Assembly: GCA_042218325.1 (NCBI GenBank)
Contig: JBDGRE010000013.1
Location: forward strand, 1-64,000
From: Candidatus Nanohaloarchaea archaeon
Lineage (GTDB): Archaea > Nanohalarchaeota > Nanosalinia > Nanosalinales > Nanosalinaceae
Length of the DNA stretch: 64,000 nt
Direction: 5' to 3'
Below are positions 1-23,757 of this stretch, one piece after another (position 1 is the stretch's first letter; every line of letters begins with the position of its first letter). Made by a program: the position numbers and the translations under genes. The notes below the pieces were generated by a model. The model was given only the letters and a program-made list of their open reading frames with translations. It did not search any database and was not told the DNA's origin.

Positions 1-47
1 GTGGCCGACCATGTAATAGAAGGAGTTCGGGAAGCCAAGAGAAGTTA

Positions 48-61
48 AAAGCCCCGAGAGG
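48..61. repeat. att site, distal copy of the tRNA-Thr 3' end
   Basis: 14/14 match to 17283-17296. Confidence 0.8.
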
Positions 62-94
62 CCCGGATGTCTCAACTGGGGATCGAAGAGATAA

Positions 95-742
95 CTATCC
101 AAAGATTAGCTTCAAGACACCAAACACTATGAAAACAATCGCCAAAATCTGGTATATGATGTTCAGGTAATAGTTGCCCTTTTCTTCATCTTTACCTATC
201 ATATTCTGAATAGTGTTATAGATACCGAGAATTAACTTGAGGGTTCCTCCAAATATACCTATTGAAAGGTACAAGAGTGTATAGTAGAGATTGTATTCTC
301 TGTTGAAAATTATTATATCGTATGATTTTAGCCTATTAACAGTGATTTCAAAGGTAATTTGATCTCTTGCTTGACGGAGGTTTTCTCTACAGGAAGTAAG
401 ATTTTCGTATAATTGGGAGGCGTTTCTTTGACTTTCGGCTAATCTCTCCGAGAGATTTCCTTTAATGTCTCTACAGGATTCTAAATCATTACTCAATCTT
501 TCATTCTCATTTTGACAAGCAGTCAAATCGGAATTACATTCAGATAGATCGGATCTACAAATCTCAAGTTGATCTTGAGTTTCGTTCAAGGTTGCTTGAC
601 AATTTTGATATCTCTCTTTCCAAATGCTATCCTTAACCTGATAACCTCCGATTATTCCTGATCCGAGCATCAAACCTGCCAAACCGAGAATTAGTTTGTA
701 CTCCAGAAGAAAATCAATTATTTGGATATCCCCCAAATCCAT
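95..742 (-). CDS. Membrane protein with Cys-rich coiled coil
   Basis: N-terminal hydrophobic helix, heptad coiled coil with periodic Cys, two C-terminal TM segments. Confidence 0.7.
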   Translation of the reverse strand: MDLGDIQIIDFLLEYKLILGLAGLMLGSGIIGGYQVKDSIWKERYQNCQATLNETQDQLEICRSDLSECNSDLTACQNENERLSNDLESCRDIKGNLSERLAESQRNASQLYENLTSCRENLRQARDQITFEITVNRLKSYDIIIFNREYNLYYTLLYLSIGIFGGTLKLILGIYNTIQNMIGKDEEKGNYYLNIIYQILAIVFIVFGVLKLIFG

Positions 743-847
743 ACGGTAAGGTCTTTTTCTAACTCTTTTGAGTTTGATCCTCTTATCTAACTTGAAGTTC
801 GGATCCGTGACATCCTATATAAGACTGGGGAGCCGGTCTCTGGGACG

Positions 848-2173
848 ATGGCTAATACACCTGACCCGAAAGAGTATTTAGAAAAGAAGTCCAGCGAACT
901 GGACGAAGAAAATCTTCAAGCTCTCGAAGATTTCAGAAATACTTACAAACATAGTGAAGGAACACTTTACACCCACTTGTCTCGACTGTATCGTTTCTTG
1001 GATTTCGCCCCTGACAGTTTTGAGTTATCGAATCCAAAAGAGGAAGAGATATCAGATGCTATTGATAACATAGAGGATGATCCTGAATATGATGCTCGAA
1101 ACAGTCTCCTGAAAGCCTTGAACAAGTTTCTGAATATATACGATGGGGGCAAATACAAAGCTCTTACTGACACATACCAAACGAAGAAAGATGGAGGAGG
1201 TACCAAAGTTGAGAAATATATGATACTGACGGAGGATGAAGTTCAGGAAATAGTTTCACACTGTACCTCAATAAGGGATAAACTCTACATTCGGCTTATG
1301 TACGAAACAGGGAGCACGCCCGGAGAGCTACTTGTGGAGGACAAGGAGTTGGACAAGGAGTACGCACAGGTGAAGGATGTTGACCTTAACGAGGAGACCA
1401 TCTATATCCGAGGCAATAAAGATCACAAGTCACAGACTATGGAACTTCACAACAAGGGACTCCAGTATATGAGAGAGTACCTCCAGATGCATCCCGCTGT
1501 AGATAATATCTATAATACACATTCTGATGCCCCTCTTTTCCTAAAAGAGAGAGCTTTCAGTTGTAAGAACTGTGGTAAGCCGAAACAACCACACGAGGAC
1601 GAAGATCACCCTGACCGCAGTCTTGCTTGTGATAACTATGATCCAAACAGACTTGAAAAAGTAGGCGATGGAGGTATGAGACAGATTTTCAAAAATGCTC
1701 TTGAGAGAAGCTCGATAAATCGTGATATCAAGCAGAAATATATGAGAAAGTCGATCTTGTCAAAACTGGCTACAGAGCTTAAATACGAACAATTATGTAC
1801 TTTTGCGAGATGGGTGCCCGGAAGCTCACAGGCTGAACACTACATTAGACTGGACAATAAGGAGTTGAGAGATGAGATAGCAGGAATTTTCAAGAATAAA
1901 CAAACTGGAGAAAATAAGCAGACAATCACTTGTGGAAACTGTAACTCTCAAAATGACCCTGACAATCTTTCCTGTAAATTCTGTAACCGCCCTCTAAATG
2001 TGGCAAAGTCAGAGAAAATGAAACAGGCAGAAGAGGTAGCAAACCAACTGGCAGATATGAGTGAGGGAGATATGGAAAGATTCGTACAAATAGCACAGAT
2101 GAAAAATGGAGATAGCTCAATTGAAAGTATGGTTGAGGAGATGGTAGAGAAGAAAATATCTGGAGAGGATTAA
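848..2173 (+). CDS. Tyrosine recombinase-family protein with Zn ribbons, degenerate active site
   Basis: RDK..LMYETGSTPGEL box I, KYMRKS box II, RW..GS...HY; CxxC pairs internally and at the C-terminus. Confidence 0.8.
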   Translation: MANTPDPKEYLEKKSSELDEENLQALEDFRNTYKHSEGTLYTHLSRLYRFLDFAPDSFELSNPKEEEISDAIDNIEDDPEYDARNSLLKALNKFLNIYDGGKYKALTDTYQTKKDGGGTKVEKYMILTEDEVQEIVSHCTSIRDKLYIRLMYETGSTPGELLVEDKELDKEYAQVKDVDLNEETIYIRGNKDHKSQTMELHNKGLQYMREYLQMHPAVDNIYNTHSDAPLFLKERAFSCKNCGKPKQPHEDEDHPDRSLACDNYDPNRLEKVGDGGMRQIFKNALERSSINRDIKQKYMRKSILSKLATELKYEQLCTFARWVPGSSQAEHYIRLDNKELRDEIAGIFKNKQTGENKQTITCGNCNSQNDPDNLSCKFCNRPLNVAKSEKMKQAEEVANQLADMSEGDMERFVQIAQMKNGDSSIESMVEEMVEKKISGED

Positions 2174-2769
2174 GTTTCCTCAACAGAAACTATGGTTTGG
2201 GAGTAGTTAAGCTCCTGCTTTAGGGCAGTAGCATAGTCAAGTATTTCCTCGGTTGCGGCTATAGCCTGATTTAGTTCTTCATCCTTTGTCCGAGGAGCAT
2301 CCTTCAATACATACAGGAAATCTTTGTAAAGCATACTTTGAAGATTTGAATCCTCTTTTGATTTCACATAATTCTGGATATGCCATTTAAATACATCTTT
2401 AACTCTTGGATTTCTCTCAAACTCTGATAGATACTTCGAGGGCGCCTCTCTGGATATATCGGCTTTCCTTCCTTTTACTAATTCTTCCTCTTTTGCTTCT
2501 GTTTCTGCTACTTTCTTCTTGACCGATAGTTGCCAGTCTGAAAAGAAATTATCCCAATCTACATAGTAAAGCCTTTTTCGACCGTCTTTTTCGCTTTTGA
2601 CAATTTCTTGTTTTTTTAGTGCTGATAGGGCTGAACTGACATTTCCTTTGTCAATTCCAGTGGCCTCTGAAATACTTGAAGGGTTCCTATTCTCCCCCTT
2701 TGTAATTTCTCTAAACACTCTATAAGGAGTTTTTGGCTCCAGAATTTCGGTTTTTTTATTTAATTCCAT
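2170..2769 (-). CDS. ArsR/wHTH transcriptional regulator
   Basis: PSSISEATGIDKGNVSSALSALKKQEIVKSEKDGRKRLYY winged-HTH pattern. Confidence 0.85.
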   Translation of the reverse strand: MELNKKTEILEPKTPYRVFREITKGENRNPSSISEATGIDKGNVSSALSALKKQEIVKSEKDGRKRLYYVDWDNFFSDWQLSVKKKVAETEAKEEELVKGRKADISREAPSKYLSEFERNPRVKDVFKWHIQNYVKSKEDSNLQSMLYKDFLYVLKDAPRTKDEELNQAIAATEEILDYATALKQELNYSQTIVSVEET

Positions 2770-2771
2770 AC

Positions 2772-2842
2772 ATCAGTATGAGTCATACTTATATTTAAAA
2801 GCCTTTGGTTCTAAATAAGAAATCAGTATGAGCCAAACTGAT
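2772..2842. promoter_or_regulatory. Divergent promoter with two 21-bp palindromic operators
   Basis: ATCAGTATGAGTCATACTTAT (2772-2792) and ATCAGTATGAGCCAAACTGAT (2822-2842) flank TATA-like TATTTAAAA. Confidence 0.75.
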
Positions 2843-2983
2843 AAAACAGATTCAAAAGAAGACCCGGTCAAAATCGTAGAAAAAGCCCTTGAAATACCAG
2901 AAACGATTGTAGAGGAACTTCCTCCAGTTTACAAGCGACAATACAAACGCCTCTGGGACAAGATCAGTGGTGATGAAAAATGA
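2828..2983 (+). CDS. Small 51-aa protein (not in ORF track)
   Basis: ATG at 2828, MSQTDKTDSKEDPVKIVEKALEIPE...GDEK; ATGA overlap with the next gene. Confidence 0.65.
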   Translation: MSQTDKTDSKEDPVKIVEKALEIPETIVEELPPVYKRQYKRLWDKISGDEK

Positions 2984-5235
2984 GTGAAGCTACAAGCAAA
3001 GAACTGGAAGATGGGAAAATATGGATAGAAAACATAAGGAAAGAAAATAATGGTACGAGAGGCGATATAGGGTACAAAGGCTACGATAGAGAAGTAACTG
3101 AAAGAAAAAAGCTCTCTGAAAATGGATTCAAAAGATTCGCAAACCTCGTAGAAGAAGTCGTAGAAGATGTAGATGAAAAAGAGAAAACAGACATTTTCAA
3201 GAACCTATTTCTACTCCGAAACGAAGCAGTAGAACAATCCAATCAGGACAATTCTCTCTTCCAAGAAATCGAGCTTGATCCAGAAATACTTGAGATAGAC
3301 GGACAGGAAATAGCAGTAGAAACTCCTGTCAACATCTTTGTTCAGGAATTAGTGAAAGAGCACAAGAATCTACAACTAACCAAGAGCCAAAGAATGGACA
3401 CAGAGAAGCTATTCAAAATATATAGAGCCACAGACGGAGAAGGCTCCAAACAAAACGATATCTACATCATTACCGATCCAGAGGAAACCATCAGGCTCGG
3501 AAACCAAAGACTACACTTGAAGCCCGTGGATATCAGCAAAGATCCATATAGAGATTACCTCAAAGAGAGATGGAAGGACCTTGACACAGACGGAACTGGC
3601 CTCGGCTTTGACGATTTCATCGATCAGAACCAAGGAAGATATTTGAGAAAAACTTCTGGGCTTCCTCAAGAATCAGAGGAAAAGCTCAAAGAATTAGACA
3701 ACGATGAACTGTGTGATATACTGCTCAAATACTTCCGTGAAAAGGTAGAGCTTGACGAAAAACTGGAACAAGTACTATTCCCTCTCTTCGTGACCCACGA
3801 TAGTACAAAAGTTGACACAGAAGATGTGATGCCATTTGAACCTCACGGCTTCCTTTTCACGAACTCATCTGTCGGAAAATCTACAACAGCCAAAAAGATA
3901 GGATATGTAACCGATGAAGCAACTCCAGCAGGATTAATAGGCTACATATCTGCCGATGAAGGTGTTAAAAGAGGTATAATCCACGGAAGAACCAAGCCAA
4001 TATTTGCTGATGAAATAAACTTCCACGGAGAAACTAAACTCAACGACAATTTACTGGAGCTTCTCGAACAAGGAGAGAATAGACAAGTGAAGGCCGCAAA
4101 AGAAATGAGAACACGATTTTACAGTTCTCTGGTATATATGGGCAATCCCGTAGATGACAGGAGCTTTGCCAATAAACAAGAGCTTGAACCTGTAGAGAGG
4201 TTCCAGATGATGCTTGATTCAGTCGGGAGTAATCTTCAAGCTCTTGGATCAAGACTGGGCTGGATCATCTTCGATCAGGAACTTGACACAGCAGGAGGAA
4301 AAGGCAAGGTCAGACTCAATAGAGAGGAAAGAGAAAAACTCGAAATTGTCACTAATTGGATTAGAAAAGAAGTGTCAGAAGAATACACGAGGATCCACGA
4401 AGAGTTGAGAGAATGGCTCGGACAAAAGTACCCGGAGAGCTACCACGAGAAGATTGACAAGATCGACTTCAACGAAAAGATGGAAAACTTCTGGCAGAAC
4501 CACAAAGAAGCATATAGACACACTCGTGGGCTTGCCTTGAAAGGTGCTGTTCTCAAGAATCTGTCAGATATAATAAACGAGAGCTACAACATCGAAGATA
4601 TCAAGAAAGACGCGGAGGATTGTTTTGAAGATATTCTCGATGTCAACAAAGAGACTATGGCGAAGTTAAACGCAGAAGTGAGCTTTGAACTTGAAAAAGA
4701 ACAGGCAAGAGCCATACTTGAAGATCAAAGGCCTGAATACATCAAACTATTTGTGAAGACAGTGGTAGCTTACGCCAGAGAAAAAGAAATTGAAGAGTAC
4801 ACTTCTGCCAGCGAACTAAAGGCCGTCTGGAGTGATATACGAGAAGACCTTGATGAGGTAAAAGAAGGTTCAAAATATTGGAAATGGAGCAGGATAGAAA
4901 ATAGCGTCAAGGATAATATAGGCAAATCAAATCAGGTCTTGACCGAGAGATACGGCCTGATCTTGAGCAATTCCGAAGATGTACTAATGGTTAAGAGTAA
5001 GGATTTAGGCTTCATCAAGTACAGAAGGTCTGCCAATATCGGAAGTTCTTCTATTTCGGAGGAGAATGGCAGGTACCAAAGGTCACTTGAGTCACAGCAG
5101 GAAGGTGACCGAAGTGACCAACGGAACCAAGCAATCTCTGGTGAAATAGAAGGAGGAAGCGAAGGAACTGATTTGAAGCCAGAAGAAGCGTTGAGAAAGA
5201 GGCTCGAACAGGAAGGTGATGGAGATGGCAATTGA
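2980..5235 (+). CDS. Divergent MCM-family AAA+ helicase (element replication protein)
   Basis: SSVGKST Walker A, TPAGL, FADE Walker B, LLELLEQG..VKA, MGNP, ALGSRL arginine finger, in MCM order. Confidence 0.7.
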   Translation: MSEATSKELEDGKIWIENIRKENNGTRGDIGYKGYDREVTERKKLSENGFKRFANLVEEVVEDVDEKEKTDIFKNLFLLRNEAVEQSNQDNSLFQEIELDPEILEIDGQEIAVETPVNIFVQELVKEHKNLQLTKSQRMDTEKLFKIYRATDGEGSKQNDIYIITDPEETIRLGNQRLHLKPVDISKDPYRDYLKERWKDLDTDGTGLGFDDFIDQNQGRYLRKTSGLPQESEEKLKELDNDELCDILLKYFREKVELDEKLEQVLFPLFVTHDSTKVDTEDVMPFEPHGFLFTNSSVGKSTTAKKIGYVTDEATPAGLIGYISADEGVKRGIIHGRTKPIFADEINFHGETKLNDNLLELLEQGENRQVKAAKEMRTRFYSSLVYMGNPVDDRSFANKQELEPVERFQMMLDSVGSNLQALGSRLGWIIFDQELDTAGGKGKVRLNREEREKLEIVTNWIRKEVSEEYTRIHEELREWLGQKYPESYHEKIDKIDFNEKMENFWQNHKEAYRHTRGLALKGAVLKNLSDIINESYNIEDIKKDAEDCFEDILDVNKETMAKLNAEVSFELEKEQARAILEDQRPEYIKLFVKTVVAYAREKEIEEYTSASELKAVWSDIREDLDEVKEGSKYWKWSRIENSVKDNIGKSNQVLTERYGLILSNSEDVLMVKSKDLGFIKYRRSANIGSSSISEENGRYQRSLESQQEGDRSDQRNQAISGEIEGGSEGTDLKPEEALRKRLEQEGDGDGN

Positions 5236-5851
5236 GAATCCAGAGAGTTTAGAAGACATAGTTGGCCATCAGGACAAGAAACCGACATTTCAGAAGTATA
5301 TTGAAATCGGTGAAATAGTGACAGACCTGATGTTTTCTGGGCCACCCGGAGTAGGTAAATCAGCAATAGCACAAATTCTACAAAAAGAAACTACAAGCGG
5401 TGAAATCAATAGGAGACGGATTGTGTGTGGAGAAACCAAGAATAAAGGGGAAGATAACACCCCTCGAAATGTGAGAGAAAAAATTGGAGACTCGTTGGAT
5501 AAACTGCCGTTAATGAATGATCCTCATAATGTTGTAATACTTGAGGAATTTGATAGCTTCAAGAAAGATGAACAGAAGAAATTCAAGGGCCTATTTGAGA
5601 GGGAAGGAAATGCCAGAATTATCCTCGTTACAAATCATCCAGAGGACATACCTGAACCAGTAAAATCTCGTTTCAAGCAGTTCAGGTTCTCAAATTTGGA
5701 AGATGAGGAAATAAGGGAACTCGCTAAAAGATTTGAAGAAGAAAAAAGTCTCGATGTTGAGGAAAAGACTGTAGAGCTGATAGTTAATAAAGCGGATGGG
5801 GATGCTCGAACAGCAATACAGGAGCTTAAAGAATTGAAGGCTCGTCTGTAA
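5216..5851 (+). CDS. Truncated RFC small-subunit-like AAA+ ATPase
   Basis: PESLEDIVG, GPPGVGKS, ILEEFD, VKSRF, GDARTAIQEL; lacks the C-terminal collar. Confidence 0.8.
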   Translation: MMEMAIENPESLEDIVGHQDKKPTFQKYIEIGEIVTDLMFSGPPGVGKSAIAQILQKETTSGEINRRRIVCGETKNKGEDNTPRNVREKIGDSLDKLPLMNDPHNVVILEEFDSFKKDEQKKFKGLFEREGNARIILVTNHPEDIPEPVKSRFKQFRFSNLEDEEIRELAKRFEEEKSLDVEEKTVELIVNKADGDARTAIQELKELKARL

Positions 5852-5993
5852 GACAATATAAGCTATTCAGAATGTAGAGGGATTTAAGGATCCAGAAGAG
5901 GAAAGTACATAAGATTTGATTACTTCACAATCATTACGGAATAGCGGAAAGCTACGGACATTTTATTTTAAACCGAATATAAAATTGATAATT

Positions 5994-7097
5994 ATGGAAG
6001 CTATGGACAAAAGCGGGTTTTTAGACCTCAAGAACGAGGAGTTTGAGGAAATTGGAGAGTTCACGGAGTTCTTGATAGATCAAAGAGATGTCTCCGAATT
6101 TGACGATACCCTGAAAGTTATCGGCTCAATAACCGATTTTGACAGCCAAGAGGAGTTTGAATCCAGTATAAGGAAAGAGTTTCAGATCAGCAAGAGATAC
6201 GGAAACCTTCTCTTATTGAGAAAAGAGTACTCGGTGAAAGAAGTAGAAAGCTATGTTTTCTTCGACAGAGAGAACAAAGTATCCCTATTCTTCACTCTGG
6301 AGAACAAGACCGACATAATCCCTGACACGATAATCAACTACATAGAAGAAGGAGCCAACATATCGAGCCTCTGGATCAATCCAAGTACTTTAGATGAGAT
6401 ACGAGAGGAAATCGAGAGAGACTACAACAACACCCAGATCACGCAGTTCGTGGCCAAAAGAGAGCTCTACACAGATATTGATTCAAGGTTGAGACCGGGA
6501 CGGAAGAGAACAATCGAATACTACGGAAATGACGCAAAGCAGACTCTAAAAGAAATGAAGCAGATGTACGGAGTTCTGCCAACAGTTTTAGAGTTCAGAC
6601 TGCCGAACAACAACCAGTTCAGAATTGACAGGAAGGGAATATTCACCATAAGAAGAGGGGAATTTGACCTGATATTTGAGATCATTAACAGAGTTCTACA
6701 GAGACTGCTCGACTTGAGAGATGTAGTAAACACCTCTGGATACCAGATAGTGAGAACAGACACCAAGAACAGAAGTTTCGAGGTAGAAAGTAAGGAGCCT
6801 TGGTCTATCCAGTTAAAGAAGAAGATCGAGTACGATGATGTTCCGAAGATCAAAGAGGAAATCGAGGAAGGTGAATGGGGGTTCACCTTTGTTGACAGCG
6901 TGGCTAAAGAAGGCTCGCTGTATCTATCCGCAAGAATCGTAGACACCAGAAAGAACAGGGAAATAGAGATTGTCTCTGACGGCGAAGAAATCAAAGTTTA
7001 CCCGCCAGAGGACGAGGAAATTGGTTCTTCGCTACGGTTCTTCGAGTTCGTACAAGAAACAATTGACCGAAATGCGGAGGCGGTCGAGAGTGTATAA
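5994..7097 (+). CDS. Hypothetical protein, first gene of a two-gene operon
   Basis: Long acidic ORF; ATG at 5994 preferred over upstream TTG; 12 nt from the next gene, which has an AGGAGG RBS. Confidence 0.7.
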   Translation: MEAMDKSGFLDLKNEEFEEIGEFTEFLIDQRDVSEFDDTLKVIGSITDFDSQEEFESSIRKEFQISKRYGNLLLLRKEYSVKEVESYVFFDRENKVSLFFTLENKTDIIPDTIINYIEEGANISSLWINPSTLDEIREEIERDYNNTQITQFVAKRELYTDIDSRLRPGRKRTIEYYGNDAKQTLKEMKQMYGVLPTVLEFRLPNNNQFRIDRKGIFTIRRGEFDLIFEIINRVLQRLLDLRDVVNTSGYQIVRTDTKNRSFEVESKEPWSIQLKKKIEYDDVPKIKEEIEEGEWGFTFVDSVAKEGSLYLSARIVDTRKNREIEIVSDGEEIKVYPPEDEEIGSSLRFFEFVQETIDRNAEAVESV

Positions 7098-7109
7098 GGA
7101 GGGGGATCT

Positions 7110-8189
7110 ATGGAAGAACGAGACGAATATCAGAAACTGAAAGACCAGATCAATACAGACGAACAGAAAGAGTGGTTAGAATCTCTCAAGGAAGAAGAAT
7201 TTGAAGAAGCATTTGATTTCAGAAAGAATGAGATAAAGGAGTCTCTCGAAGATGACGGATTCCATATGGAGATGATACAATCGGTGGCGGCCGCATTTCT
7301 CAAAGGTTCGGACATAAGCGAGGAGACTGGATATAACTTCCTATTTACAGAACCACTTGTGGAGAAGGGAGAAAAGAACTTCGATGTCCTTATCTATAAT
7401 ACAGAATCCAACTCCGCAGTCTTCGTGGAATGTAAGTCCAGTATCAGCGACAGATCGATGAATGGTGTACTGGAAGATACCGAGCAAGCGATTGAAGCGG
7501 TAGAAGAGCACGAAGAATACCTCGAACGGCAGATCGGGGACGATATTGACCACAAAGGATTCGTGCTAATGACAAGTGCGTCAGATATACAGAAACTGAA
7601 AGACAGGGACTGGGAATTTAACGGAGGAGACGATACCTGCCTCTGGTATATCGACATTTTCAAGCAGAAGAAAATCCTTCTGGAGAGAAGCAAAGGAAGT
7701 CACAATCACAAGAAATTAGCCGAGAAGATGAAGAATGGAATCGTTGTTGACGACAGAAGAATCGACATCAAGCTAATCTACAACACGAACAACTACAGAG
7801 CCATAAAGAAAGTCCTGATAGATATTTTGAGAGACAACCAGAAGATGGAGCGGGAAGATCCAAAGGAGTTCGATAAAGAAAGACTCGCAGAAACACTCAC
7901 AGATATGGTGAAAATGGGCACCTCCGATGTAGACGAATTAATGGTTGAGAAGGCTGAAAACTTGGAGGAAATCGCCAAGAAATGCGAGGTTATCAAGGAA
8001 GGAAACGAACTGGACTACAGAATCGTATCAAGCTACTCGAAAGTCAAAGGAATCAGAAAGGACATAGAAAGCAAGCTCATCAACAATATAGCATCTGAAA
8101 GAGCCGAAGAAGACGCCAGAGAAAGAGCAGTAGAGAGATTCAAGAAAGGAGAAGGATCTGGCCAACAAGGTCTCGACTCCTTCAACTAA
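7110..8189 (+). CDS. PD-(D/E)XK nuclease-domain protein
   Basis: TEP....KNFDVLIYN...AVFVECKS motif. Confidence 0.7.
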   Translation: MEERDEYQKLKDQINTDEQKEWLESLKEEEFEEAFDFRKNEIKESLEDDGFHMEMIQSVAAAFLKGSDISEETGYNFLFTEPLVEKGEKNFDVLIYNTESNSAVFVECKSSISDRSMNGVLEDTEQAIEAVEEHEEYLERQIGDDIDHKGFVLMTSASDIQKLKDRDWEFNGGDDTCLWYIDIFKQKKILLERSKGSHNHKKLAEKMKNGIVVDDRRIDIKLIYNTNNYRAIKKVLIDILRDNQKMEREDPKEFDKERLAETLTDMVKMGTSDVDELMVEKAENLEEIAKKCEVIKEGNELDYRIVSSYSKVKGIRKDIESKLINNIASERAEEDARERAVERFKKGEGSGQQGLDSFN

Positions 8190-8229
8190 CATACACTATA
8201 ATTTGATTCATCGAAAAGCAATCTAATAT

Positions 8230-8916: not shown

Positions 8917-8918
8917 AC

Positions 8919-10013: not shown

Positions 10014-10023
10014 TTGTCTTCAC

Positions 10024-10572
10024 CTAATTATGTCTGCTGTTATGTTCTTCTCCGAGCCCTTTCCTTTCTTCTATTTCTTTAAGTTGTTTCTTGACTGGTT
10101 CTTGTGGTACTTCTGATCTGGTGTAGGCTCCAGATACTTTGTAGATGTTCTCTGATTCTACTTTGAATATTTTCTTTTCAGATTCTCCAGCGTATTTCTC
10201 ATCGTAGTTCTCGAAGTATTCTTTCTGCTTTTCTTCATCTTCGAATCTCTTGCTGAAAAGCGTCCTAACCGAATCTTCCAAGTTTTCGTCCTCTAATATT
10301 TTGGCTTTAGCGTCTATCTGTATTCCATCTGCCTCTTCTGGAGGATTTGTAGAGTTATAGATTGATAAGGCAACCTCGCTGTTCTCTTGTATATATTTGC
10401 CGTGTCGAGAAGTCTTCAAAGAAACAAAGTAGAAGTTTAATTCAGGATCAACAGCATAGTATACAGCCGAGACCCACGGATTATCATCTTGGGAAATCGC
10501 TATATCCATATACCTGTTGTTCAGAAGCATTTCCACACATTTTTCGACCATTTCAGAGTTTTCTTCATTCAT
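10024..10572 (-). CDS. Pyridoxamine 5'-phosphate oxidase family protein
   Basis: PWVSAVYY..FYFVSLKTSRHGKYI..VALSIY..GIQI. Confidence 0.8.
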   Translation of the reverse strand: MNEENSEMVEKCVEMLLNNRYMDIAISQDDNPWVSAVYYAVDPELNFYFVSLKTSRHGKYIQENSEVALSIYNSTNPPEEADGIQIDAKAKILEDENLEDSVRTLFSKRFEDEEKQKEYFENYDEKYAGESEKKIFKVESENIYKVSGAYTRSEVPQEPVKKQLKEIEERKGLGEEHNSRHN

Positions 10573-10576
10573 AGTA

Positions 10577-10999
10577 TCACATAGAAATTTCGTGGTAGTT
10601 TGCTATCAGGTTTTGTAGACTTTCGTTTGAAGATTTCTGAATAAGTTCTTCTGGTGTGAGCCATTCGTAGCTGGTAATGTTTTCGTCTGCTGGATTGTCG
10701 GAAATATCGATTTCCTGCGTATCTATTTCTCCCTCGAATACTGTTAGAACTACTTGATCTCCGTCATCGTCAGCTCCTACAAAGAAATAGTACATTCCGA
10801 CTGGATCTCCTACCTCTACCTGTGTTGATAGTTCTTCCTGAATTTCTCTTTCCAGAGTTTTCACGGGTTCTTCGCCGTATTCGACTTTGCCTCCCGGCAA
10901 CACCCAATATGTTCGATCCTGTGCCTCGGTTTTCAAAACCAAAATTTTGCCGTCCTTCTCAATCAGAGCCTTCACAGCAGGTTTAACATCTCTGCTCAT
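10577..10999 (-). CDS. NUDIX hydrolase
   Basis: LPGGKVEYGEEPVKTLEREIQEELS Nudix box. Confidence 0.9.
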   Translation of the reverse strand: MSRDVKPAVKALIEKDGKILVLKTEAQDRTYWVLPGGKVEYGEEPVKTLEREIQEELSTQVEVGDPVGMYYFFVGADDDGDQVVLTVFEGEIDTQEIDISDNPADENITSYEWLTPEELIQKSSNESLQNLIANYHEISM

Positions 11000-11052
11000 A
11001 AAGGAGAATTGAAATAAGAAATATTATAGAATTTAGGCTTTAAACCGATACT

Positions 11053-11436
11053 ATGGATGGCGTAGTTGTTGTAATTCGAGAAGGAGATAAGTACCTGATG
11101 GTTCAAGATGCCGAAGGCAGTTATGAAGGGAAATGGGCTCCAGTACACGGCTCTCTCGAAGAAGGAGAAACACCAGAAGAAGCAGGAATCCGAGAAGTAA
11201 AAGAAGAAGTAAACCTCGAAGTAGAACTTACTCAAGAAGACAAGATAACTAAAACGCCAGCAGATTACAAGACAGATGAACTCCACTGGTACCTAACAGA
11301 AGAATATAGCGGCGAAATACAGGTAGAGGAAAGAGAAATCAGCGACTACAAATGGATGACTTTAGACCAAATAGAAGAAAGAGAACTGCTCCCACAAGCA
11401 GAAAACTTCTTTCAGGACTACAAACCTCAAAGGTGA
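11053..11436 (+). CDS. NUDIX hydrolase
   Basis: GSLEEGETPEEAGIREVKEEVN Nudix box. Confidence 0.9.
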   Translation: MDGVVVVIREGDKYLMVQDAEGSYEGKWAPVHGSLEEGETPEEAGIREVKEEVNLEVELTQEDKITKTPADYKTDELHWYLTEEYSGEIQVEEREISDYKWMTLDQIEERELLPQAENFFQDYKPQR

Positions 11437-11443
11437 ACACATA

Positions 11444-11934
11444 ATGGACTTCGTCATAAGAACCAATTACTCTCAAGAATTAAAGAACACGATAGATTCA
11501 AAGGCTGAAAATAGACAAGAACTTTCTGAAATAAAGGACGAGTTCTACAAGCCCGAAGAAACTGATCTACCAGATTTCAGTCCACGAGATGTTATCATCA
11601 GAAAACGAACTTTCCCAGATAGGGAGACACTGGTCAAGATAAATATTATCCAGAAACCGACTGGCTACACCGATACAAAAGAAGATTTAGAGAGCCTTGA
11701 GGACTATGAAAAATGGGGCGAGTCGATTCTTACGCCGTAGAATATTAGTTGAAAATAGAGAACGAAGAGATCCCAATTCTCATAGAAACATTTGACTTCG
11801 GCAAGTACATCAAGATAGAATCGCCGTCACCTGAAATACTGGACAGTATTATCCAAGAACTCAATCTTGATGAAGGCGATATATTAGAGAAGAACTCGGC
11901 AGAACTGCTGGCCGAAAATATGAATAAAATTTAA
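11444..11934 (+). pseudogene. Disrupted CYTH-like protein
   Basis: Two consecutive fragments (98 and 61 aa) with DEFY, IRKR, FGKYIKIE; frameshift and TAG near 11720-11748. Confidence 0.45.
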
Positions 11935-11963
11935 GCACGAGTTCAATTTATAGGTCAAAAACT

Positions 11964-12713
11964 ATGGAAAAAGTAAACTTCACCAACAGTCGGGGACTGG
12001 AACTGGTAGGTAATTACTGGGAGTCGGACTCTGATGCCGCAATAGTGATGAGTCACGGATTCACAGGAGATAAGCACGAGGGAGGGTATTTTGATACCGT
12101 AGCAGAGGCACTGAATGAGAGAGGTTATAATGTCCTAACATTTGACTTTTCAGGAAGGGGAGAAAGTCAGGATGATGCGATAACTATAGAAAAAGAAGTG
12201 GATGATCTTGATTCAGCTCTCCAGTATCTTGAGGAAAATAAAAATATAGATAGGATAGGTCTCTATGGATATAGCCTCGGTGGACTTGTTTCGCTACGAA
12301 ATGACAGGCCGGAAATTGAAGCTATAGTATTAACATCTCCTGTTACAGCAGAAATAGAAGCTCTGAAACTCCAAAGTTTTGAGAAAGGTGACACATTCAC
12401 ATATCAAAACGGAGTCTATATCAAGCATAAGGAAGATGAAGTGAGAAAGGAACTCCCGATAGATGAGAAAATATCAGAAGAGGCAAATAAAATAGACCAA
12501 GACCAACTCCTATCAGACATCGAAACTCCTGTGTTGATTATTCACGGAGACCAAGACTCTGTGGTTCCTCTGGGAGACTCCAGAAATGCTGTGGAAAAAC
12601 TGGAACACGGAAAACTCGAAGTAATAGAAGGACTGGATCACAGCTACGACACCCACTACGACCAGATAATACAGAACGCCGAGAACTGGTTCAACCGATA
12701 TATGGAGCCTTAA
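11964..12713 (+). CDS. Alpha/beta hydrolase
   Basis: HGFTG, GYSLGG nucleophile elbow, HGDQDSVVP, GLDH. Confidence 0.9.
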   Translation: MEKVNFTNSRGLELVGNYWESDSDAAIVMSHGFTGDKHEGGYFDTVAEALNERGYNVLTFDFSGRGESQDDAITIEKEVDDLDSALQYLEENKNIDRIGLYGYSLGGLVSLRNDRPEIEAIVLTSPVTAEIEALKLQSFEKGDTFTYQNGVYIKHKEDEVRKELPIDEKISEEANKIDQDQLLSDIETPVLIIHGDQDSVVPLGDSRNAVEKLEHGKLEVIEGLDHSYDTHYDQIIQNAENWFNRYMEP

Positions 12714-12746
12714 TTTATTGAAATTTCGGGCATTAAATCTTTCTTA

Positions 12747-13601
12747 ATGCTTGATTGGATTGCTTTCGCACTGATCGCTACCTTTGCCTTCGGGTTACAG
12801 AATTTTGGTTACAAGATAGCGGCTGAAAGAGGCTGTAACAGTGCCACATTAATGTCCTCATTTATCGGCACCACGATTATTCTTTCTGCTGTAGCTCTTG
12901 TTGTGACTTGGAATTTCTCTATCAATAGCTTGTATCTGTTTCTGGCTTTTGCTGGTATTAACGCCGCATCCTTCGTTGTAAAATTCATACTGCGACAGGA
13001 GGCTTTGAAACTAATTCCACTGGTTATTGGTTTGCCTTTATCGAAGATGAGTGCGGCTGTCGCCGCCGCAATAGGAATACTTTTCTTGGGAGAACAACTA
13101 ACCCTGTTCAACTTCGCAGGAATCCTAATCTCGATGGCCGCCGTCTGGATACTATCGCAGAAAGATGATGGCGATGATATCAAGGACTTCAAGAAAGGAA
13201 TAACTTTGATGCTGGTAGTTGTACTGGCTGCGGCAATAGGTGACTTGGCGATCAAACTTGCTTCAACCGAAGGCAACAACTTCCTGTTCATAGTCACAAC
13301 CTACGGGATGATGTTCTTCCCGGCCCTGATGCTTCAAGAAAGGTTCAGCAGTATAGAGGAAGCGACCCAGAAATCTTCTTTGAAATGGGGAATAATTATC
13401 GGAGTTATCAACTTTGTCAGTTTCTCCTCGCTTTTAGCCGCCCTCCAAACAGGGCCTATGGCAATCATCTTCCCGATGACAACACTCGGAATCGCACTAT
13501 CAGTCGCATTAAGCGTAGGAATCCTGAAAGAAGAACTAACCCGGAAAAGACTCACAGGATTAATACTCGCCCTGATAGCTTTAATCCTGCTCAACCTCTA
13601 A
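12747..13601 (+). CDS. EamA/DMT family transporter
   Basis: About 10 TM helices in two repeats; ILFLGEQLT and ILKEELT motifs. Confidence 0.85.
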   Translation: MLDWIAFALIATFAFGLQNFGYKIAAERGCNSATLMSSFIGTTIILSAVALVVTWNFSINSLYLFLAFAGINAASFVVKFILRQEALKLIPLVIGLPLSKMSAAVAAAIGILFLGEQLTLFNFAGILISMAAVWILSQKDDGDDIKDFKKGITLMLVVVLAAAIGDLAIKLASTEGNNFLFIVTTYGMMFFPALMLQERFSSIEEATQKSSLKWGIIIGVINFVSFSSLLAALQTGPMAIIFPMTTLGIALSVALSVGILKEELTRKRLTGLILALIALILLNL

Positions 13602-13966
13602 ACATTCTCAACTAATTCAGAAAGAATTTCGACCAATTCTCCCTCTCCCTCATAACTAACGACTGTATCGGTAACTGCCGATAGCGAGCTTGAAGGATCA
13701 GCACTTTCTTGATAAATACATATTACAGGAACATCGTACATATCAGCCCAGCCAAGCTCTATGCCTAAACCAGTAGATGGCTCTGAAACCTCTCCTATCA
13801 TTAGATCACATTCTTCTCGGAGAAAAGTCTTGGAATCGAAGATTCCCTCCGAATCCTCGTGAGGAAAAACCAGATTGTGCTCCTCATACAACTTGCTATC
13901 CTTCAAAGGCTGGTAGAGACTGCTCTTGTAGTCAATACTGCTGGAATGCCCGACATAAATCTCCAT
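13598..13966 (-). CDS. Nucleoside 2-deoxyribosyltransferase/RCL-like protein
   Basis: IYVGHS..CDLMIGEVSEPSTGLGIELGWA. Confidence 0.75.
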   Translation of the reverse strand: MEIYVGHSSSIDYKSSLYQPLKDSKLYEEHNLVFPHEDSEGIFDSKTFLREECDLMIGEVSEPSTGLGIELGWADMYDVPVICIYQESADPSSSLSAVTDTVVSYEGEGELVEILSELVENV

Positions 13967-14021
13967 AGAAAAACACTTTAGAAACGAAATATTATAGGAA
14001 TTTCTGAATAAAAACTGTGTT

Positions 14022-14624
14022 ATGGCGGTCGGAACTGTTGACGCAATAGTATTCTACAAAGCCAGAGAAGAAGACAAAGAGTTCTTCCAAGAACTCAAAC
14101 AACAAGACAAAGAAAGACTGGCAGAACTTGGTGTAGACCTGACCGACTACGGCGAACCCGGAATCTACACCGTCCTAATCGAGAGAGGAAAAACACCATA
14201 CAAAGAAATGTTAGCCACAGCAGGAGGACACATAGAAAACGGCGAAACACCTACAGAAGCGGCAATAAGAGAACTAAAAGAAGAAACAGGAATCCAGACA
14301 GAACATCTCGAAACAGTAACAGAAGCAAAGGAAAACTTGGAACTTGTATTCGACCCAAGATACGATCCAGAAGACAAACTGCCCGAAGACGAGCCAGAAG
14401 AAATCTACCTGATCGATGGACTGGAAGACAGAGACGGAGAAGACTTCCACTACTACACCGCCGTATTTGACTACCAGCCAGAAAACCCTGACAGACGAAA
14501 CTTCCAGCTAAAAGGAGAGACAGACGCCGAAAAATCATTCTGGGTTCCATTACAGGAATTGCCGAAAATGGCTTTCACACAGCACAGAATCGTAGAATGG
14601 GGTAGAAAACAGTATGAAAGATAA
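14022..14624 (+). CDS. NUDIX hydrolase (ADP-ribose pyrophosphatase-like)
   Basis: TVDAIVF, VLIERG..PY, GGHIENGETPTEAAIRELKEETG, MAF..H. Confidence 0.85.
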   Translation: MAVGTVDAIVFYKAREEDKEFFQELKQQDKERLAELGVDLTDYGEPGIYTVLIERGKTPYKEMLATAGGHIENGETPTEAAIRELKEETGIQTEHLETVTEAKENLELVFDPRYDPEDKLPEDEPEEIYLIDGLEDRDGEDFHYYTAVFDYQPENPDRRNFQLKGETDAEKSFWVPLQELPKMAFTQHRIVEWGRKQYER

Positions 14625-15300
14625 AGAGTACAACGCAGTAATTTTCGATGTAGACGGCGTCATAGCCCAGACAACAGAAGACTGGGAATGGATGGACAAA
14701 GTATACCGACAACACTTTCCACAACCCGATAAAAACGGCTACAGCGACTGGGAAGAATACCTACAGGCATACGGCAAAATATTCAGAACTCTACACACAG
14801 AAACCGAAGACGGAGTATTCGAGGAAGTAGGGCTGGAAAATGAACAGGTGCTCGAAGCGTATAGTCAGGTTCAGGATAAGAAGAACCGTATAATGAACCA
14901 GTTTTCAGTCTACTCTGACGCTGTAGAACTATTGGAATACTTGAACGAAGAGGATTACACGGTAGCGGCTGTCAGCAACGCCAGAGAAGATAATGTCGAA
15001 CTATTCTTGGAGCAAAACGATTTGCTGAAATACTTTGACTATGTAACAGGAGTAAAGCTCGAAGACTTCAACAGTTTCAAACAGAGAAAGAAACCTAACC
15101 CTGCTATGCTTCAAGAAGCAATCCAAGAACTCGACCTCAACCCAGAAACAACAGTAATGATAGGAGATTCCTCAACAGACCGAGACGCCACCCGAAAAAT
15201 AGAACAACTCGACTACATCCATCTCAATAGAGGAGTGGAAGTAGATCCTGATGGAGAACAGACAATAGAAAACTTGAACGAACTCAAGGAGGTTCTCTAA
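14614..15300 (+). CDS. HAD-family hydrolase
   Basis: FDVDGV, VSN, KPNP, IGDS..D motifs. Confidence 0.9.
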   Translation: MKDKEYNAVIFDVDGVIAQTTEDWEWMDKVYRQHFPQPDKNGYSDWEEYLQAYGKIFRTLHTETEDGVFEEVGLENEQVLEAYSQVQDKKNRIMNQFSVYSDAVELLEYLNEEDYTVAAVSNAREDNVELFLEQNDLLKYFDYVTGVKLEDFNSFKQRKKPNPAMLQEAIQELDLNPETTVMIGDSSTDRDATRKIEQLDYIHLNRGVEVDPDGEQTIENLNELKEVL

Positions 15301-15303
15301 CCT

Positions 15304-15909
15304 ATGATGGTCAGCACCCATATTCTAATCGGGGGACTAATAGGATACCTTTTCTCAACTGCCATCTCTGTAAATCCAGTTACTCTTGCTTTAGCAGGAA
15401 TGTTAGGAGGTCTTATACCCGAACTTGATTTTCTGATAGGACACCACAGGAAAACACTCCACTTCCCATACAGCTATTTCCTCCTGTCAATACCTGTTCT
15501 CATTCTGATCCCTTTCTTTCAGGCAGAACTTTTGATATTGCTTGCTACCGTGTTAGTGTCGGCTGGCGTTCATTCGTTTATGGATATTTTCGCTGGAGCC
15601 GAACTCCGTTCTTGGGACGAATCCGAGTGGGAAGATACAGCAGTATATGACCATATCAGAGATAAGTGGATTCAACCCCAAAGAATAGCTTACGGAGGAT
15701 CTATGAGAGACTTTCTGCTCTCAACTATCTGCTTTTTCTCGACTATCTACCTGATAAATGATCCAAAAATTCTCCTTATCGCAACTGGACTGATAGTTTT
15801 CTCTGTAGCCTATACTATGGGAATCAAGAAAGCATCAGACGAAATAATAGATGGAAAATATGCTACTCTGAATGGATTTATACGATCAAAATTGAAGGCT
15901 CTTCTATAA
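15304..15909 (+). CDS. Membrane-bound metal-dependent hydrolase
   Basis: STH, IPELD, HRKTLH, HSFMD motifs with TM helices. Confidence 0.85.
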   Translation: MMVSTHILIGGLIGYLFSTAISVNPVTLALAGMLGGLIPELDFLIGHHRKTLHFPYSYFLLSIPVLILIPFFQAELLILLATVLVSAGVHSFMDIFAGAELRSWDESEWEDTAVYDHIRDKWIQPQRIAYGGSMRDFLLSTICFFSTIYLINDPKILLIATGLIVFSVAYTMGIKKASDEIIDGKYATLNGFIRSKLKALL

Positions 15910-15966
15910 TCTTTCAGAACTGCCGTGCCGCTCTTTTAAGCGGCTAAAAAATATATTTTCTTGAAG

Positions 15967-17010
15967 ATGACCGCTGACGACCTTCACGAGCTTGTCGACT
16001 ACTACGAGGAACAGGAGAAGTACCAGCCAATCACTGTTTACCTTCACGGGTTTGTGAATCACTACAAGGGTGACCTGTCCAAAGGGAGTATTGTACAGTA
16101 TCTGCGGTACTTGGCCTACCTTGACTTCGATCCTCTGGACGAGAATCCCGAACCAGAAGATGTCAAGATCGAAGATTTTCACCTTGACAGGCTACAGGAA
16201 TGGACAAGAGCCAAAGCCCGGAAACGGTTCGGAGAGTCAGGCGAGAAACTCAACTCCCGTAATAGGTTTGCGTATATGACATATTTGGCCTTGAAAAAAT
16301 ACTTGAAAATGGCAGATCCCTCGCTGTTGCCATACCTTCCAGACTCCGAACAGTTCGAGAAACCCTACAGTCAACCAAAGACGATATACTACAGCGAGAC
16401 ACAGATCCAAGACCTGATGATGGCGTCAGAGAACCGAAAGGTCTTCCTATCTATAGCCCTAATGTACTACGCAGGACTCCGTAGTTACGAGCTACTTCAC
16501 TTGACACCAGAATGGCTGGAGTTCAAAACTGATAGGATTGAGATAGAAATACCGCCGAAGTATGCCAAAGGTCAGAAAAATAACCAGACCTCTGAAATCA
16601 CTTTCCTCAAGAAAATCTATGGAGAAGACCTCAAGCAACACATTAAGGATCAACATAACTATGACGGAGACTATCACCAACTGGTGTCACAGTTGGTGGA
16701 TCAGGAGAGCTTCCAGCCCGTCTTCAACTACAAGGAAAACTCCCAGAAATCCTACAGGGAACTGATGAAGGAGAGATACGAACTGAACCAGAAGTTGAAA
16801 GAAACCGCCAAGAAAGCAGGATTCAACAAAGCCGAGAAAATATCCAGCCATAAACTACGCAGATCATTCATTCGGAAAGTCTATGATTCAACCAAGGATC
16901 TTTCCCGAACGGCACAGGTAGCCAGACACAAAAGTCCTGAAACCACACAGCAATATCTACATCTGGATAAAGAAGAGCAATTAGAGACCTACCAAGAAGC
17001 ATTTCTCTGA
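15967..17010 (+). CDS. Tyrosine recombinase/integrase with intact catalytic residues
   Basis: AGLRSYEL, AKG, HKLRRS, ARH, QQY; ends ~270 nt from the att site in tRNA-Thr. Confidence 0.9.
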   Translation: MTADDLHELVDYYEEQEKYQPITVYLHGFVNHYKGDLSKGSIVQYLRYLAYLDFDPLDENPEPEDVKIEDFHLDRLQEWTRAKARKRFGESGEKLNSRNRFAYMTYLALKKYLKMADPSLLPYLPDSEQFEKPYSQPKTIYYSETQIQDLMMASENRKVFLSIALMYYAGLRSYELLHLTPEWLEFKTDRIEIEIPPKYAKGQKNNQTSEITFLKKIYGEDLKQHIKDQHNYDGDYHQLVSQLVDQESFQPVFNYKENSQKSYRELMKERYELNQKLKETAKKAGFNKAEKISSHKLRRSFIRKVYDSTKDLSRTAQVARHKSPETTQQYLHLDKEEQLETYQEAFL

Positions 17011-17284
17011 AACTATATCGGTGTGAAATCCACAATATTCCTATATACAACGTAGGAAGTAGAGTCAAATAACGCTGATATTATGAGTCGGAAACCGAGT
17101 GGTCTAATATAAGTCATAATTGAAAAACTAAACAACGCTGATGACTCTTTCTACCTGAAAAAATATACGAAGAAGTTCTATAGTCATTATTTTAGGCTAA
17201 ATGACTGATTAAAGTAGAAAATCCAAATCAGACAAGACAGAGGATTTCTCTAAATTATCTCTTCGACCCCCAGTTGAAAGTGAA

Positions 17285-17436
17285 AGCCCCGAGAGGGATT
17301 TGAACCCTCGACCTGCCCCTTGCTTGCGACCAGTTATATTCCCGAAAGCCATGTAAAGCATGGCTTAAAGCGCGCCGCACGGCGCTTTGGCTGGCGGTAC
17401 AAGGGGGCCGCTCTAGCCAGACTGAGCCATCGAGGC
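17285..17436 (-). tRNA. tRNA-Thr(UGU) with 77-nt intron at 37/38 (17321-17397)
   Basis: Acceptor GCCTCGA/TCGGGGC, anticodon arm GCCCC-CTTGTA|A-GGGGC, TTCAAAT T-loop, BHB helix CTTG/CAAG. Confidence 0.95.
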
Positions 17437-17492
17437 ACTGTTTTCGTGGTCGCGGAGAATAGTTAAATAACTGGAGCCTCCTCTCACCGTTC

Positions 17493-23536: not shown

Positions 23537-23757
23537 GGTGACATTTAAAACAGAAACGGATTTTTATGGCTTTCGGATGACAACTTGTATTTTGGTCCCG
23601 AAGAGATAGTATGTTCATGGACCGGCCCTCAACCAGAGCTAATGCTCAACACGCCCTCTTCAGAGGCTCTTCAAGCTTTGTAGCCTTTATCAGGGTTAGT
23701 AGTATTTATAAGGCTAACCTTTTGTCTCGTCTGGAATTGAGGTGAAAATCCTACTTG

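Follow-up and report, generated by a model that had tools for sequence, protein, structure and literature searches.

A probable plasmid-like integrative element at the 3′ end of an intron-containing tRNA-Thr gene in a nanohaloarchaeal genome

Boundaries of the island

The first 64,000 nucleotides (nt) of contig JBDGRE010000013.1 (contig C5 of genome G000, a Candidatus Nanohaloarchaea archaeon; assembly GCA_042218325.1), hereafter called the window, were analysed, and coordinates given without a contig name refer to it. The window carries at its left end an AT-rich island of 17.2 kb, which lies between a convergent host gene and the 3′ end of an intron-containing tRNA-Thr gene. The genes of a tyrosine-recombinase-like protein (Int-441, 848-2173) and of a tyrosine recombinase (Int-349, 15961-17010) are located near its two ends, and an MCM-like helicase, an RFC-small-subunit-like protein and a series of metabolic genes are encoded between them.

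The island is bounded by a 14-bp direct repeat, which we regard as the core of the attachment (att) site. With up to one mismatch allowed, exactly two copies were present in the window, at 48-61 and 17283-17296, and two or more matches were obtained in none of 100 shuffled sequences. The right, proximal copy (attR-type junction) lies within and just past the tRNA 3′ end, consisting of the final 12 nt of the tRNA and 2 nt beyond. The left, distal copy (attL-type junction) is identical to it over all 14 bp and is abutted by the stop codon (46-48) of the convergent host gene. A longer 25-mer of the tRNA end was unique in the window. When three mismatches were allowed, no convincing third copy was found inside the island; the sole match there, at 16213 with three mismatches, is at the level of chance, the search giving 19 matches in the window against 8.9 expected.

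Inside the cores lies a pair of 23-bp inverted repeats, of which the left arm (72-94) is 10 bp inside the left core and the right arm (17255-17277) is 5 bp inside the right core. The arms are complementary at 22 of 23 positions, a score reached by none of 200 shuffles, and no copy of the arm other than these two was found in the genome. If the ends were joined in a circle, the two arms would flank the core, with a spacer of 29 bp, and they are probably bound by a recombinase or by the winged-helix protein described below.

The combination of a 14-bp direct repeat with 23-bp inverted repeats near both ends could also suggest a transposon, casposon-like or of another kind, in which the inverted repeats would be terminal and the 14 bp a duplication of the target site. 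Casposons make target duplications of about 14 bp. We nevertheless consider a transposon highly improbable, given that no Cas1 or transposase was found among the 23 open reading frames (ORFs) scanned, that the arms do not abut the repeats but are offset by the distances given above, and that the repeat is exactly a tRNA 3′ end, the classical target of tyrosine integrases, in an island with two tyrosine recombinases. The casposon in particular was rejected for its missing Cas1 and the offset arms.

Composition and continuity with the flanks

The G+C content of the island is about 41%, in a genome of 56%. It was 0.38-0.45 in every 1-kb bin of 1-17000 and 0.52-0.56 immediately to the right. The tetranucleotide distance from the genome mean ranked at the 97th-100th percentile in 4-kb segments of 56-16055 and at the 94th in the segment straddling the right end (14056-18055). 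For the flanks, covering 12 kb of contig C1 on the left and 8 kb on the right, the rank was the 33rd-64th percentile. Since the percentiles are high inside the island and ordinary in both flanks, the foreign composition has two sharp edges.

The window begins where C5 begins, and the left flank was therefore reached through C1, which ends with the same 55 nt with which C5 starts. GC-rich coding DNA makes up the terminal 1.5 kb of C1, and the final gene there is the one that stops at 46-48.

Parts of the stretch are contained in seven sequencing runs from salt-lake or unlabelled metagenomes, all as assembled contigs, and the contigs of four runs (X1-X4) were compared with the window. In the probable source run, a single Logan contig of 17,287 nt covers 26-17312 and thereby crosses both junctions. 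Its depth was 18, and that of the flanking contigs 15.7-15.9, values not usable as copy number. Exact low-depth pieces of both island and flank were found in X2 and X4. Pieces in X3, a run of another study, were 90-99% identical to the island, indicating that variants of it exist elsewhere.

These data bear on the suspicion that the island of another organism was joined to this genome at the conserved tRNA during assembly or binning. The contig breaks 8 nt into the left core, and the tRNA is common to many foreign contigs, with loose ends at 17283-17285 and a depth that climbs to 27.8-89.8 in the tRNA bin, as such a chimera would predict. Against it, the junctions are crossed in two assemblies (the contig of the metagenome-assembled genome, MAG, and the Logan contig), the depths of island and flanks are similar, the 47 nt at the left end run on into a host contig with conserved synteny in relatives, and the exact low-depth pieces of island and flank co-occur in X2 and X4. 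A chimera is thus very unlikely.

The target tRNA gene and the syntenic site in relatives

A minus-strand tRNA was found with Rfam at 17285-17436 (48.4 bits), and ARAGORN with default settings did not call it. When introns were allowed, ARAGORN called the same locus as Ala(TGC) with a 77-nt intron; this label was rejected, on the acceptor stem and the orthologues, as an artefact of intron placement. The acceptor stem has C3-G70 and lacks G3:U70, and both Ala tRNAs of the genome have G3:U70 and begin with GGGCTC. The genome's own Thr(CGU) gene has nearly the same sequence, and CTTGTA stands in the anticodon loop of the syntenic tRNAs in two relatives as well. On account of this acceptor stem, the likeness to Thr(CGU) and the loops of the relatives, the gene was identified as an intact tRNA-Thr(UGU) on the minus strand, with its 5′ exon at 17436-17398, a 77-nt intron at about 17397-17321 in the canonical 37/38 position, and its 3′ exon at 17320-17285. 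Joints of 17320 to 17398 were present in metagenome contigs. Over the whole genome, ARAGORN gave 43 tRNA calls, about two thirds of them with introns of 48-143 nt; this list is noisy and includes one 'intron' of 2.9 kb, one 'Stop' tRNA and one undetermined tRNA.

The same site was compared between genomes. Of 41 genomes searched (G000 included), 38 gave a match to the right flank and 6 to the left-flank gene. Among the 40 relatives searched with the left flank, only G005 and G001 show the left-flank and tRNA-Thr matches adjacent on one contig. In G005, a member of the same family and 98% complete, the left-flank gene, 587 bp, the orthologous intron-containing tRNA-Thr(UGU) and a right-flank gene are contiguous on a single contig. 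In G001, of the same genus, about 2.1 kb of small ORFs lies on one contig between the left-flank gene and the orthologous tRNA. No integrase or island was found between the left-flank gene and tRNA-Thr in either genome, and no ORF of integrase size in G001. A third genome, G040, has a strong left-flank match, its tRNA-Thr locus being outside the comparison. The small ORF left of the core had no detectable homologue in G005 or G001; tblastn matches to it came from an overlapping frame of the upstream gene and were discarded. Because this short intervening ORF is not conserved, the site is empty in these relatives at the level of synteny.

Taken together, much of what the initial annotation had read from the letters alone was borne out: two copies of the 14-mer, a recombinase gene near each end, a jump in composition at the tRNA, and the 3′ end of an intron-containing tRNA-Thr as the target. 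Of the findings that it named as refuting, AT-rich island genes running on left of 48 and the same genes at this locus in relatives were not observed, as shown by the G+C and tetranucleotide profiles, by the GC-rich host DNA at the end of C1, and by G005 and G001.

We interpret 62-17282, with its defined boundaries, intact tRNA, foreign composition, two intact recombinase genes, MCM-like and RFC-like genes and absence from the syntenic site of two relatives, as very probably a horizontally acquired, plasmid-like integrative element that entered tRNA-Thr(UGU) by conservative site-specific recombination. In the proposed mechanism, the 14-bp core on the circular element would recombine with the identical final 12 nt of tRNA-Thr(UGU) and the 2 nt following it. 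Integration would keep the tRNA intact and leave a 14-bp partial copy at the far end.

The two recombinases

Int-349 (15961-17010, plus strand) is a tyrosine recombinase with the canonical pattern R...HxxR...H...Y (PF00589, 54.2 bits), the catalytic residues being R (AGLR), HxxR (HKLRR), H (ARH) and Y (QQY). The 3′ end of the gene faces that of the tRNA. The family gave 11 matches at E 1e-10, the protein of the window among them, and its homologues are distributed patchily, in 8 of the 70 genomes of the order (G000 included). Fragments of related genes in G067 and G055 are convergent with tRNA-Thr(GGU) and tRNA-Gly(UCC), an arrangement like that of Int-349 and its tRNA. Between Int-349 and the integrase of the pleolipovirus Harhisp1, no similarity was found. 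Near the Int-349 homologues of other genomes, nothing resembling the inverted arm or the core was found above chance, save for a 45-nt stretch in common with G020. This stretch spans the stop codon of Int-349 and is 87% conserved with the G020 homologue (window 17011-17035; G020 locus L051, 1016-1060); the remaining DNA downstream of the gene differs between the two, and the stretch may be a conserved terminator or binding site.

Int-441 (848-2173, plus strand) is tyrosine-recombinase-like and has a C-terminal zinc ribbon. It retains Glu-I, Lys, Arg-II, Trp-III and Tyr, and has Thr in place of Arg-I and Lys in place of His-II. The Thr aligns to Arg-I of P. abyssi XerA (4a8e), T. acidophilum XerA (5hxy) and E. 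coli XerD (1a0p), so that the protein lacks the first residue of the canonical R...HxxR...Y tetrad of tyrosine recombinases. Among 5.8 billion proteins, eight matches to the Int-441 family were obtained, and none of its relatives was found in the IMG/VR contigs. All six of the close family members have Thr at the Arg-I position and Lys at His-II and retain the other five residues named above, and distant members of the zinc-ribbon-tailed clade have the canonical residues, including two encoded beside MCM-like genes in G056. Since the close members share the Thr and the distant ones are canonical, the substitution is derived and conserved, not a one-off defect. For comparison, each of the eleven families listed in Table 1 of PMC5861418 keeps Arg-I.

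The two proteins are 25% identical over 192 amino acids (aa). Both ORFs are intact (441 and 349 aa), the cores lying 786 bp outside Int-441 and 272 bp outside Int-349. Int-349 is most likely the recombinase that made the insertion, because its catalytic residues are the canonical ones and its gene points with the 3′ end towards the tRNA, like the fragments of its relatives beside two other tRNAs, and because it lies on the tRNA side of the island, with Int-441 and the genes next to it far from the tRNA.

Replication genes and a second island

Two genes follow Int-441. The first encodes a winged-helix DNA-binding protein (MarR/TrmB/ArsR-like; 2170-2769, minus strand), which is convergent with Int-441 and keeps this position in related elements. 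The second encodes a protein of 751 aa (2980-5235, plus strand), in the translation of which Walker A and B motifs were recognised by eye. At the thresholds used, no Pfam (E 0.01 for the MCM model), NCBIfam or PHROG family was assigned to it; no sequence match was found in the PDB at E 1, none among phage records and none in IMG/VR. Homologues numbered two by a word-indexed search and 329 representatives by an exhaustive search. Of 23 that were scanned, nine have an N-terminal Toprim/DnaG-type primase, one has a Prim-Pol and twelve have no family. Many of the relatives (P0015-P0026, P0088) are 1000-1250 aa long and carry an N-terminal module of zinc ribbon, DnaG_N and Toprim, constituting a fusion of a DnaG-type primase with an MCM-like protein.

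An AlphaFold2 model of the 751-aa protein, built from 30 sequences, had a pLDDT of 77.3. All top Foldseek matches of the model were MCM proteins, with E down to 1.8e-11, and VIA-align gave Z 20.1 with a root-mean-square deviation of 3.8 Å over 293 residues (model 124-564), the value for SsoMCM (6mii_B) being Z 19.9. The predicted structure matches the MCM fold, which consists of an N-terminal OB-containing domain and an AAA+ domain, and by this model the protein is a divergent MCM-like helicase. The next gene (5216-5851, plus strand) encodes a short AAA+ protein resembling the RFC small subunit, that is, clamp-loader-like (PF00004; phrog_168, 1.8e-33; NF001679, 111.9 bits against a cut-off of 303). 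Because helicase-type and clamp-loader-like proteins are both encoded, the excised circle may replicate autonomously.

Homologues of the MCM-like gene occur in 2 of the 70 genomes of the order, G000 and G056, with two copies in each. In all four of these loci (C5, G000:C30, G056:C33 and G056:C40), the order is integrase gene, an ORF on the opposite strand, MCM-like gene. The Int-441, winged-helix and MCM-like genes thus appear to be a backbone conserved across a family of elements in nanohaloarchaea, and would provide replication of the excised circle.

The second copy in G000 belongs to another AT-rich island, of 22.6 kb (C30 2397-24991; loci L027 and L028), which is bounded by a 16-bp repeat of the 3′ end of tRNA-Arg(GCG); the DNA left of the left repeat (1-2396) is AT-rich too. 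Its Int-441 homologue, 46% identical, begins at a distance of 60 bp from the tRNA; no other PF00589 protein was found in the 15 ORFs scanned. Its cargo differs from that of the present island. It consists of ParB_N, a C5 methylase, a weakly terminase-like ORF, and GmrSD, PLD-SNF2 and Eco57I-like methylase genes, a set that we read as of restriction and defence type; an MBL-fold gene lies in one block with the last three. Homologues of Int-349, the AAA+ protein and the 393-aa and 359-aa proteins described below were not found in the C30 island. On a metagenome contig (L037), likewise, an Int-441 homologue starts 43 bp past a tRNA.

This distribution raises the question of whether the island is a composite, in which a backbone element with Int-441, the winged-helix protein and MCM merged with an Int-349 element carrying the AAA+, 393-aa and 359-aa genes, by nested or tandem integration or by recombination, the two now forming one unit. 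The recombinases are distantly related, as given above; in G020, an Int-349 homologue (64% identity) and homologues of the AAA+, 393-aa and 359-aa genes lie no more than 9 kb apart, without any MCM-like homologue in that genome, and the C30 island has the reciprocal set. On the other hand, there is no third att copy inside the island, its G+C content and tetranucleotide signature are uniform along its length, and there is a single pair of inverted arms, at the two ends. We regard a composite origin as possible, if rather doubtful.

Cargo and other genes

Twenty main ORFs fill the element, and all are open. Sixteen of the 20 proteins are acidic (isoelectric point, pI, 4.05-5.12), and the pI of the rest is 6.0-8.7. 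At the left end, a coiled-coil protein of 215 aa (95-742, minus strand) gave weak matches of coiled-coil type only. Downstream of the RFC-like gene lies a two-gene cassette on the plus strand, consisting of a 393-aa protein (5916-7097; PHROG 24372) and its 359-aa partner (7110-8189); for neither was a match found in local Pfam. Atlas gave MJECL33/AF_0896_M-like and MJECL32-like, respectively, the latter by structure, as leads only, and a candidate PD-(D/E)XK-like N-terminal region was noted by eye in the 359-aa protein. The pair is 24-26% identical to two adjacent hypothetical genes of the temperate pleolipovirus Harhisp1, which lie beside an Orc1-type replication gene.

The right two-thirds of the island would be cargo from low-GC nanohaloarchaea. 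Pfam recognised a membrane protein with a lycopene-cyclase domain (8230-8895, minus), a PNPOx-like protein (10024-10572, minus), a NUDIX hydrolase (10577-10999, minus), an alpha/beta hydrolase (11964-12713, plus) and an EamA-type transporter (12747-13601, plus). A PNPOx-like domain fused to a SAM methyltransferase (8919-10013, minus) has a 48%-identical copy elsewhere in the genome. The second NUDIX hydrolase (11053-11436, plus) adjoins a 98-aa protein of unassigned function (11444-11740, plus), as it does in G056, where the two proteins are 81% and 86% identical, respectively. The third NUDIX hydrolase (14022-14624, plus) and a HAD-family hydrolase (14614-15300, plus) are 92.5% and 93% identical to the G056 proteins. 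Two assignments are weak, a nucleoside 2-deoxyribosyltransferase-like protein (13598-13966, minus; 19.5 bits, cut-off 28.8) and a YdjM-like membrane protein (15304-15909, plus; 22.3 bits, cut-off 29).

DNA of the element matched 15 of the 70 genomes (G000 included), with nearly all matches in the cargo block. In G056, which belongs to another genus and has a G+C content of about 43%, 13981-15293 was matched at 93% and 11052-11932 at 84% nucleotide identity. G020, in which the closest Int-349 homologue was found, is of the same genus as G056. Several cargo genes have paralogues, 48-54% identical, in GC-rich DNA of the host itself. The composition of the island and its nearest relatives, which were found in nanohaloarchaeal MAGs, suggest a lineage of low-GC nanohaloarchaea as its source. 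The host genome itself, of 1.07 Mb in 35 contigs and 96% complete, is that of an intron-rich archaeon with an acidic proteome from salt-lake metagenomes.

In the Pfam (23 ORFs) and PHROG (12 ORFs) scans, no capsid, spike, portal or packaging gene was found, although divergent structural genes could escape such searches, and no conjugation gene was recognised. PADLOC, applied to 19 ORFs, detected no complete defence system; the NUDIX protein matched the candidate PDC-S07, the methyltransferase and AAA matches were generic, and the helix-turn-helix protein matched Csa3. Of the modules named in the initial annotation, those for replication (the MCM-like helicase and the RFC-like protein) and for cargo (the Pfam-recognised metabolic genes) are real, and the defence module was not upheld, the matches being generic or to candidate single proteins. 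Its remarks that capsid and conjugation genes are not recognisable and that the host is DPANN-like agree with the two scans, and with the small, intron-rich, acidic-proteome genome and the nanohaloarchaeal kin of the element.

A provirus whose structural genes are too divergent to be recognised would account for the cassette in common with the temperate Harhisp1, for the weak similarity of one ORF of the C30 sister island to the terminase large subunit, and for the nucleotide-metabolism genes, since auxiliary genes of this kind are reported in nanohaloarchaeal viruses in the parts of 10.1101/2025.02.15.638363 consulted. The two scans for virion genes argue against it, as does the lack of any relative of the MCM-like protein or Int-441 in the IMG/VR contigs, and the cassette of Harhisp1 stands beside a replication gene, outside the virion module. 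A provirus is accordingly unlikely.

Mobility and observations against the proposed insertion

Several observations speak against the insertion as proposed. The block of identity is just 14 bp, and the inverted arms have no counterpart at the C30 island. Only 47 nt of host DNA lies left of the core in the window, and the link to C1 rests on the 55-nt overlap and on synteny. The 0.6-kb ORF at the G005 site is not detectably homologous to the short ORF of this genome. The choice of Int-349 over Int-441 is an indirect one; the closest full homologue of Int-349, that of G020, is not beside a tRNA, and the gene directly beside the tRNA in the C30 island and on L037 is of the Int-441 type. Neither a circular junction (17296 to 62) nor an empty site (61 to 17297) was present in the contigs of the four runs, assemblies being prone to drop rare forms. 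Finally, one contig of the source run X1 follows the window to position 55 and then continues into unrelated sequence. Both assemblies break at this very point, 55/56, which is 8 nt into the left core. The alternative continuation is neither the empty site nor the circle and gave no short-motif match in the MAG or in IMG/VR; it may come from a co-existing strain with a different insert at this site.

The missing circular junction and empty site also bear on whether the element is a fixed relic, inserted site-specifically, with excision since lost and its genes retained for the cargo. Int-441 without Arg-I and a cargo that duplicates host functions point in the same direction, and a 2.75-kb islet without an integrase at a tRNA-Ile gene of the window indicates that relics of this kind are present in the genome. 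Rare forms escape detection in contigs, however, and the att copies are perfect, the arms are complementary at nearly every position, and the ORFs of both recombinases and of the helicase are open, like all the others. Fixation is conceivable but not, in our judgement, probable.

The islet (23618-26380; G+C 0.38-0.48; small ORFs only) lies directly downstream of an intron-containing tRNA-Ile(GAU) gene (26369-26579, minus strand). Copies of an 11-bp sequence from the tRNA 3′ end, at 23618 and 26370, enclose it. Its appearance is that of a relic without an integrase; a repeat of 11 bp on its own is weak evidence. Contig C13 (19,685 bp; G+C 0.54) has identical 55-nt ends and appears circular. The genome's best match to PF00589 is located on this contig (68.7 bits, in a 403-aa frame), no tRNA-derived core was found on it, and it may be a free plasmid or virus or the carrier of the host Xer gene. 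More AT-rich stretches were noted on C24 (from about 29000 to the end), C26, C3, C33 and C5 (63001-66000 and 76001 to the end); a paralogue of Int-349 with 43% identity is encoded on C24, and a relative of Int-441 with 24.5% identity on C26. From these AT-rich stretches and the seven PF00589 matches in the whole 1.07-Mb genome, a sizeable share of the genome appears to be island-like.

Relation to known elements and significance

Read as an integrative element inserted into tRNA-Thr(UGU), the locus belongs to a known class, that of archaeal tRNA-integrating elements encoding MCM, in a phylum with few such descriptions. Archaeal elements that are integrated in tRNA genes and carry both MCM and a tyrosine integrase include the pT26-2/TKV family of Thermococcales and the MCM islands of Methanococcales. 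The present element resembles them in having an integrase and MCM, in restoring the tRNA on integration, in its variable cargo and in the lack of a conjugation apparatus. It differs from them in its host, a member of the Nanohaloarchaeota (DPANN), in an MCM too divergent for the Pfam model at E 0.01, in integrases that are non-suicidal, and in a backbone-integrase subfamily without Arg-I.

In SSV-type elements (fuselloviruses), the int gene contains the att site and is split by integration, whereas here both int genes are intact and the cores lie outside them. Int-441 has the Lys at the His-II position (KxxR) in common with the SSV-type integrases as given in Table 1 of PMC5861418; SSV1 integrase keeps Arg-I, which Int-441 does not.

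The closest mechanistic precedent is the SNJ2 provirus of Natrinema sp. J7-1, which represents an integration type shared by haloarchaeal pleolipoviruses with other mobile elements and was compared here by att geometry alone; its 14-bp direct repeats are the att core at a tRNA 3′ end according to the sections consulted of PMC5861418. Both systems have a core of this length at the tRNA 3′ end, an intact integrase gene with its 3′ end facing the core, and hypersaline hosts. The present element is distinguished by two recombinases and an MCM-like helicase, with no pleolipovirus virion genes recognised and no Orf2/Orf3-like accessory genes identified.

As to the phylum itself, a preprint on nanohaloarchaeal viruses (10.1101/2025.02.15.638363) describes, in the passages covered, one integrated pleomorphic provirus (ANPV-1) and small satellites. 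ANPV-1 and the other viruses share phylum and habitat with the element, and a figure legend lists RFC subunits, nucleoside 2-deoxyribosyltransferase and nucleotide-metabolism genes; the viruses have recognisable morphogenetic modules, and none was recognised in the present element. 'Integrase' occurs once in the text of the preprint, and a tRNA-integrating plasmid-like element was not found in the passages covered. MCM-encoding tRNA-integrating archaeal elements are partly covered by a 2021 review of archaeal tyrosine recombinases (PMC8371274), in which a term search returned no mention of DPANN or Nanohaloarchaeota. By titles and abstract openings, no plasmid-like tRNA-integrating element of Nanohaloarchaeota was found in the literature, and one could still be in print.

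The most unusual component of the element is the recombinase family lacking Arg-I. We put forward, as a speculation that is on balance unlikely, that Int-441 and its five close relatives are active integrases without Arg-I, a residue otherwise universal, perhaps assisted by an invariant Arg eight residues upstream of the Thr, and that, with the winged-helix protein and the divergent MCM, they define an undescribed lineage of plasmid-like integrative elements, specific to Nanohaloarchaeota, that shuttles nucleotide-housekeeping and other metabolic genes between genera of DPANN archaea with reduced genomes.

The mobile elements of DPANN archaea are barely charted, and this locus adds a cleanly delimited element, with a second one in the same 1.07-Mb genome. 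It provides evidence at the DNA level (84-93% identity) for metabolic cargo moving between genera of very different G+C content. It also supplies a divergent clade of MCM, many members of which are fused to DnaG-type primases, and a family of tyrosine recombinases without Arg-I that offers a natural test case.

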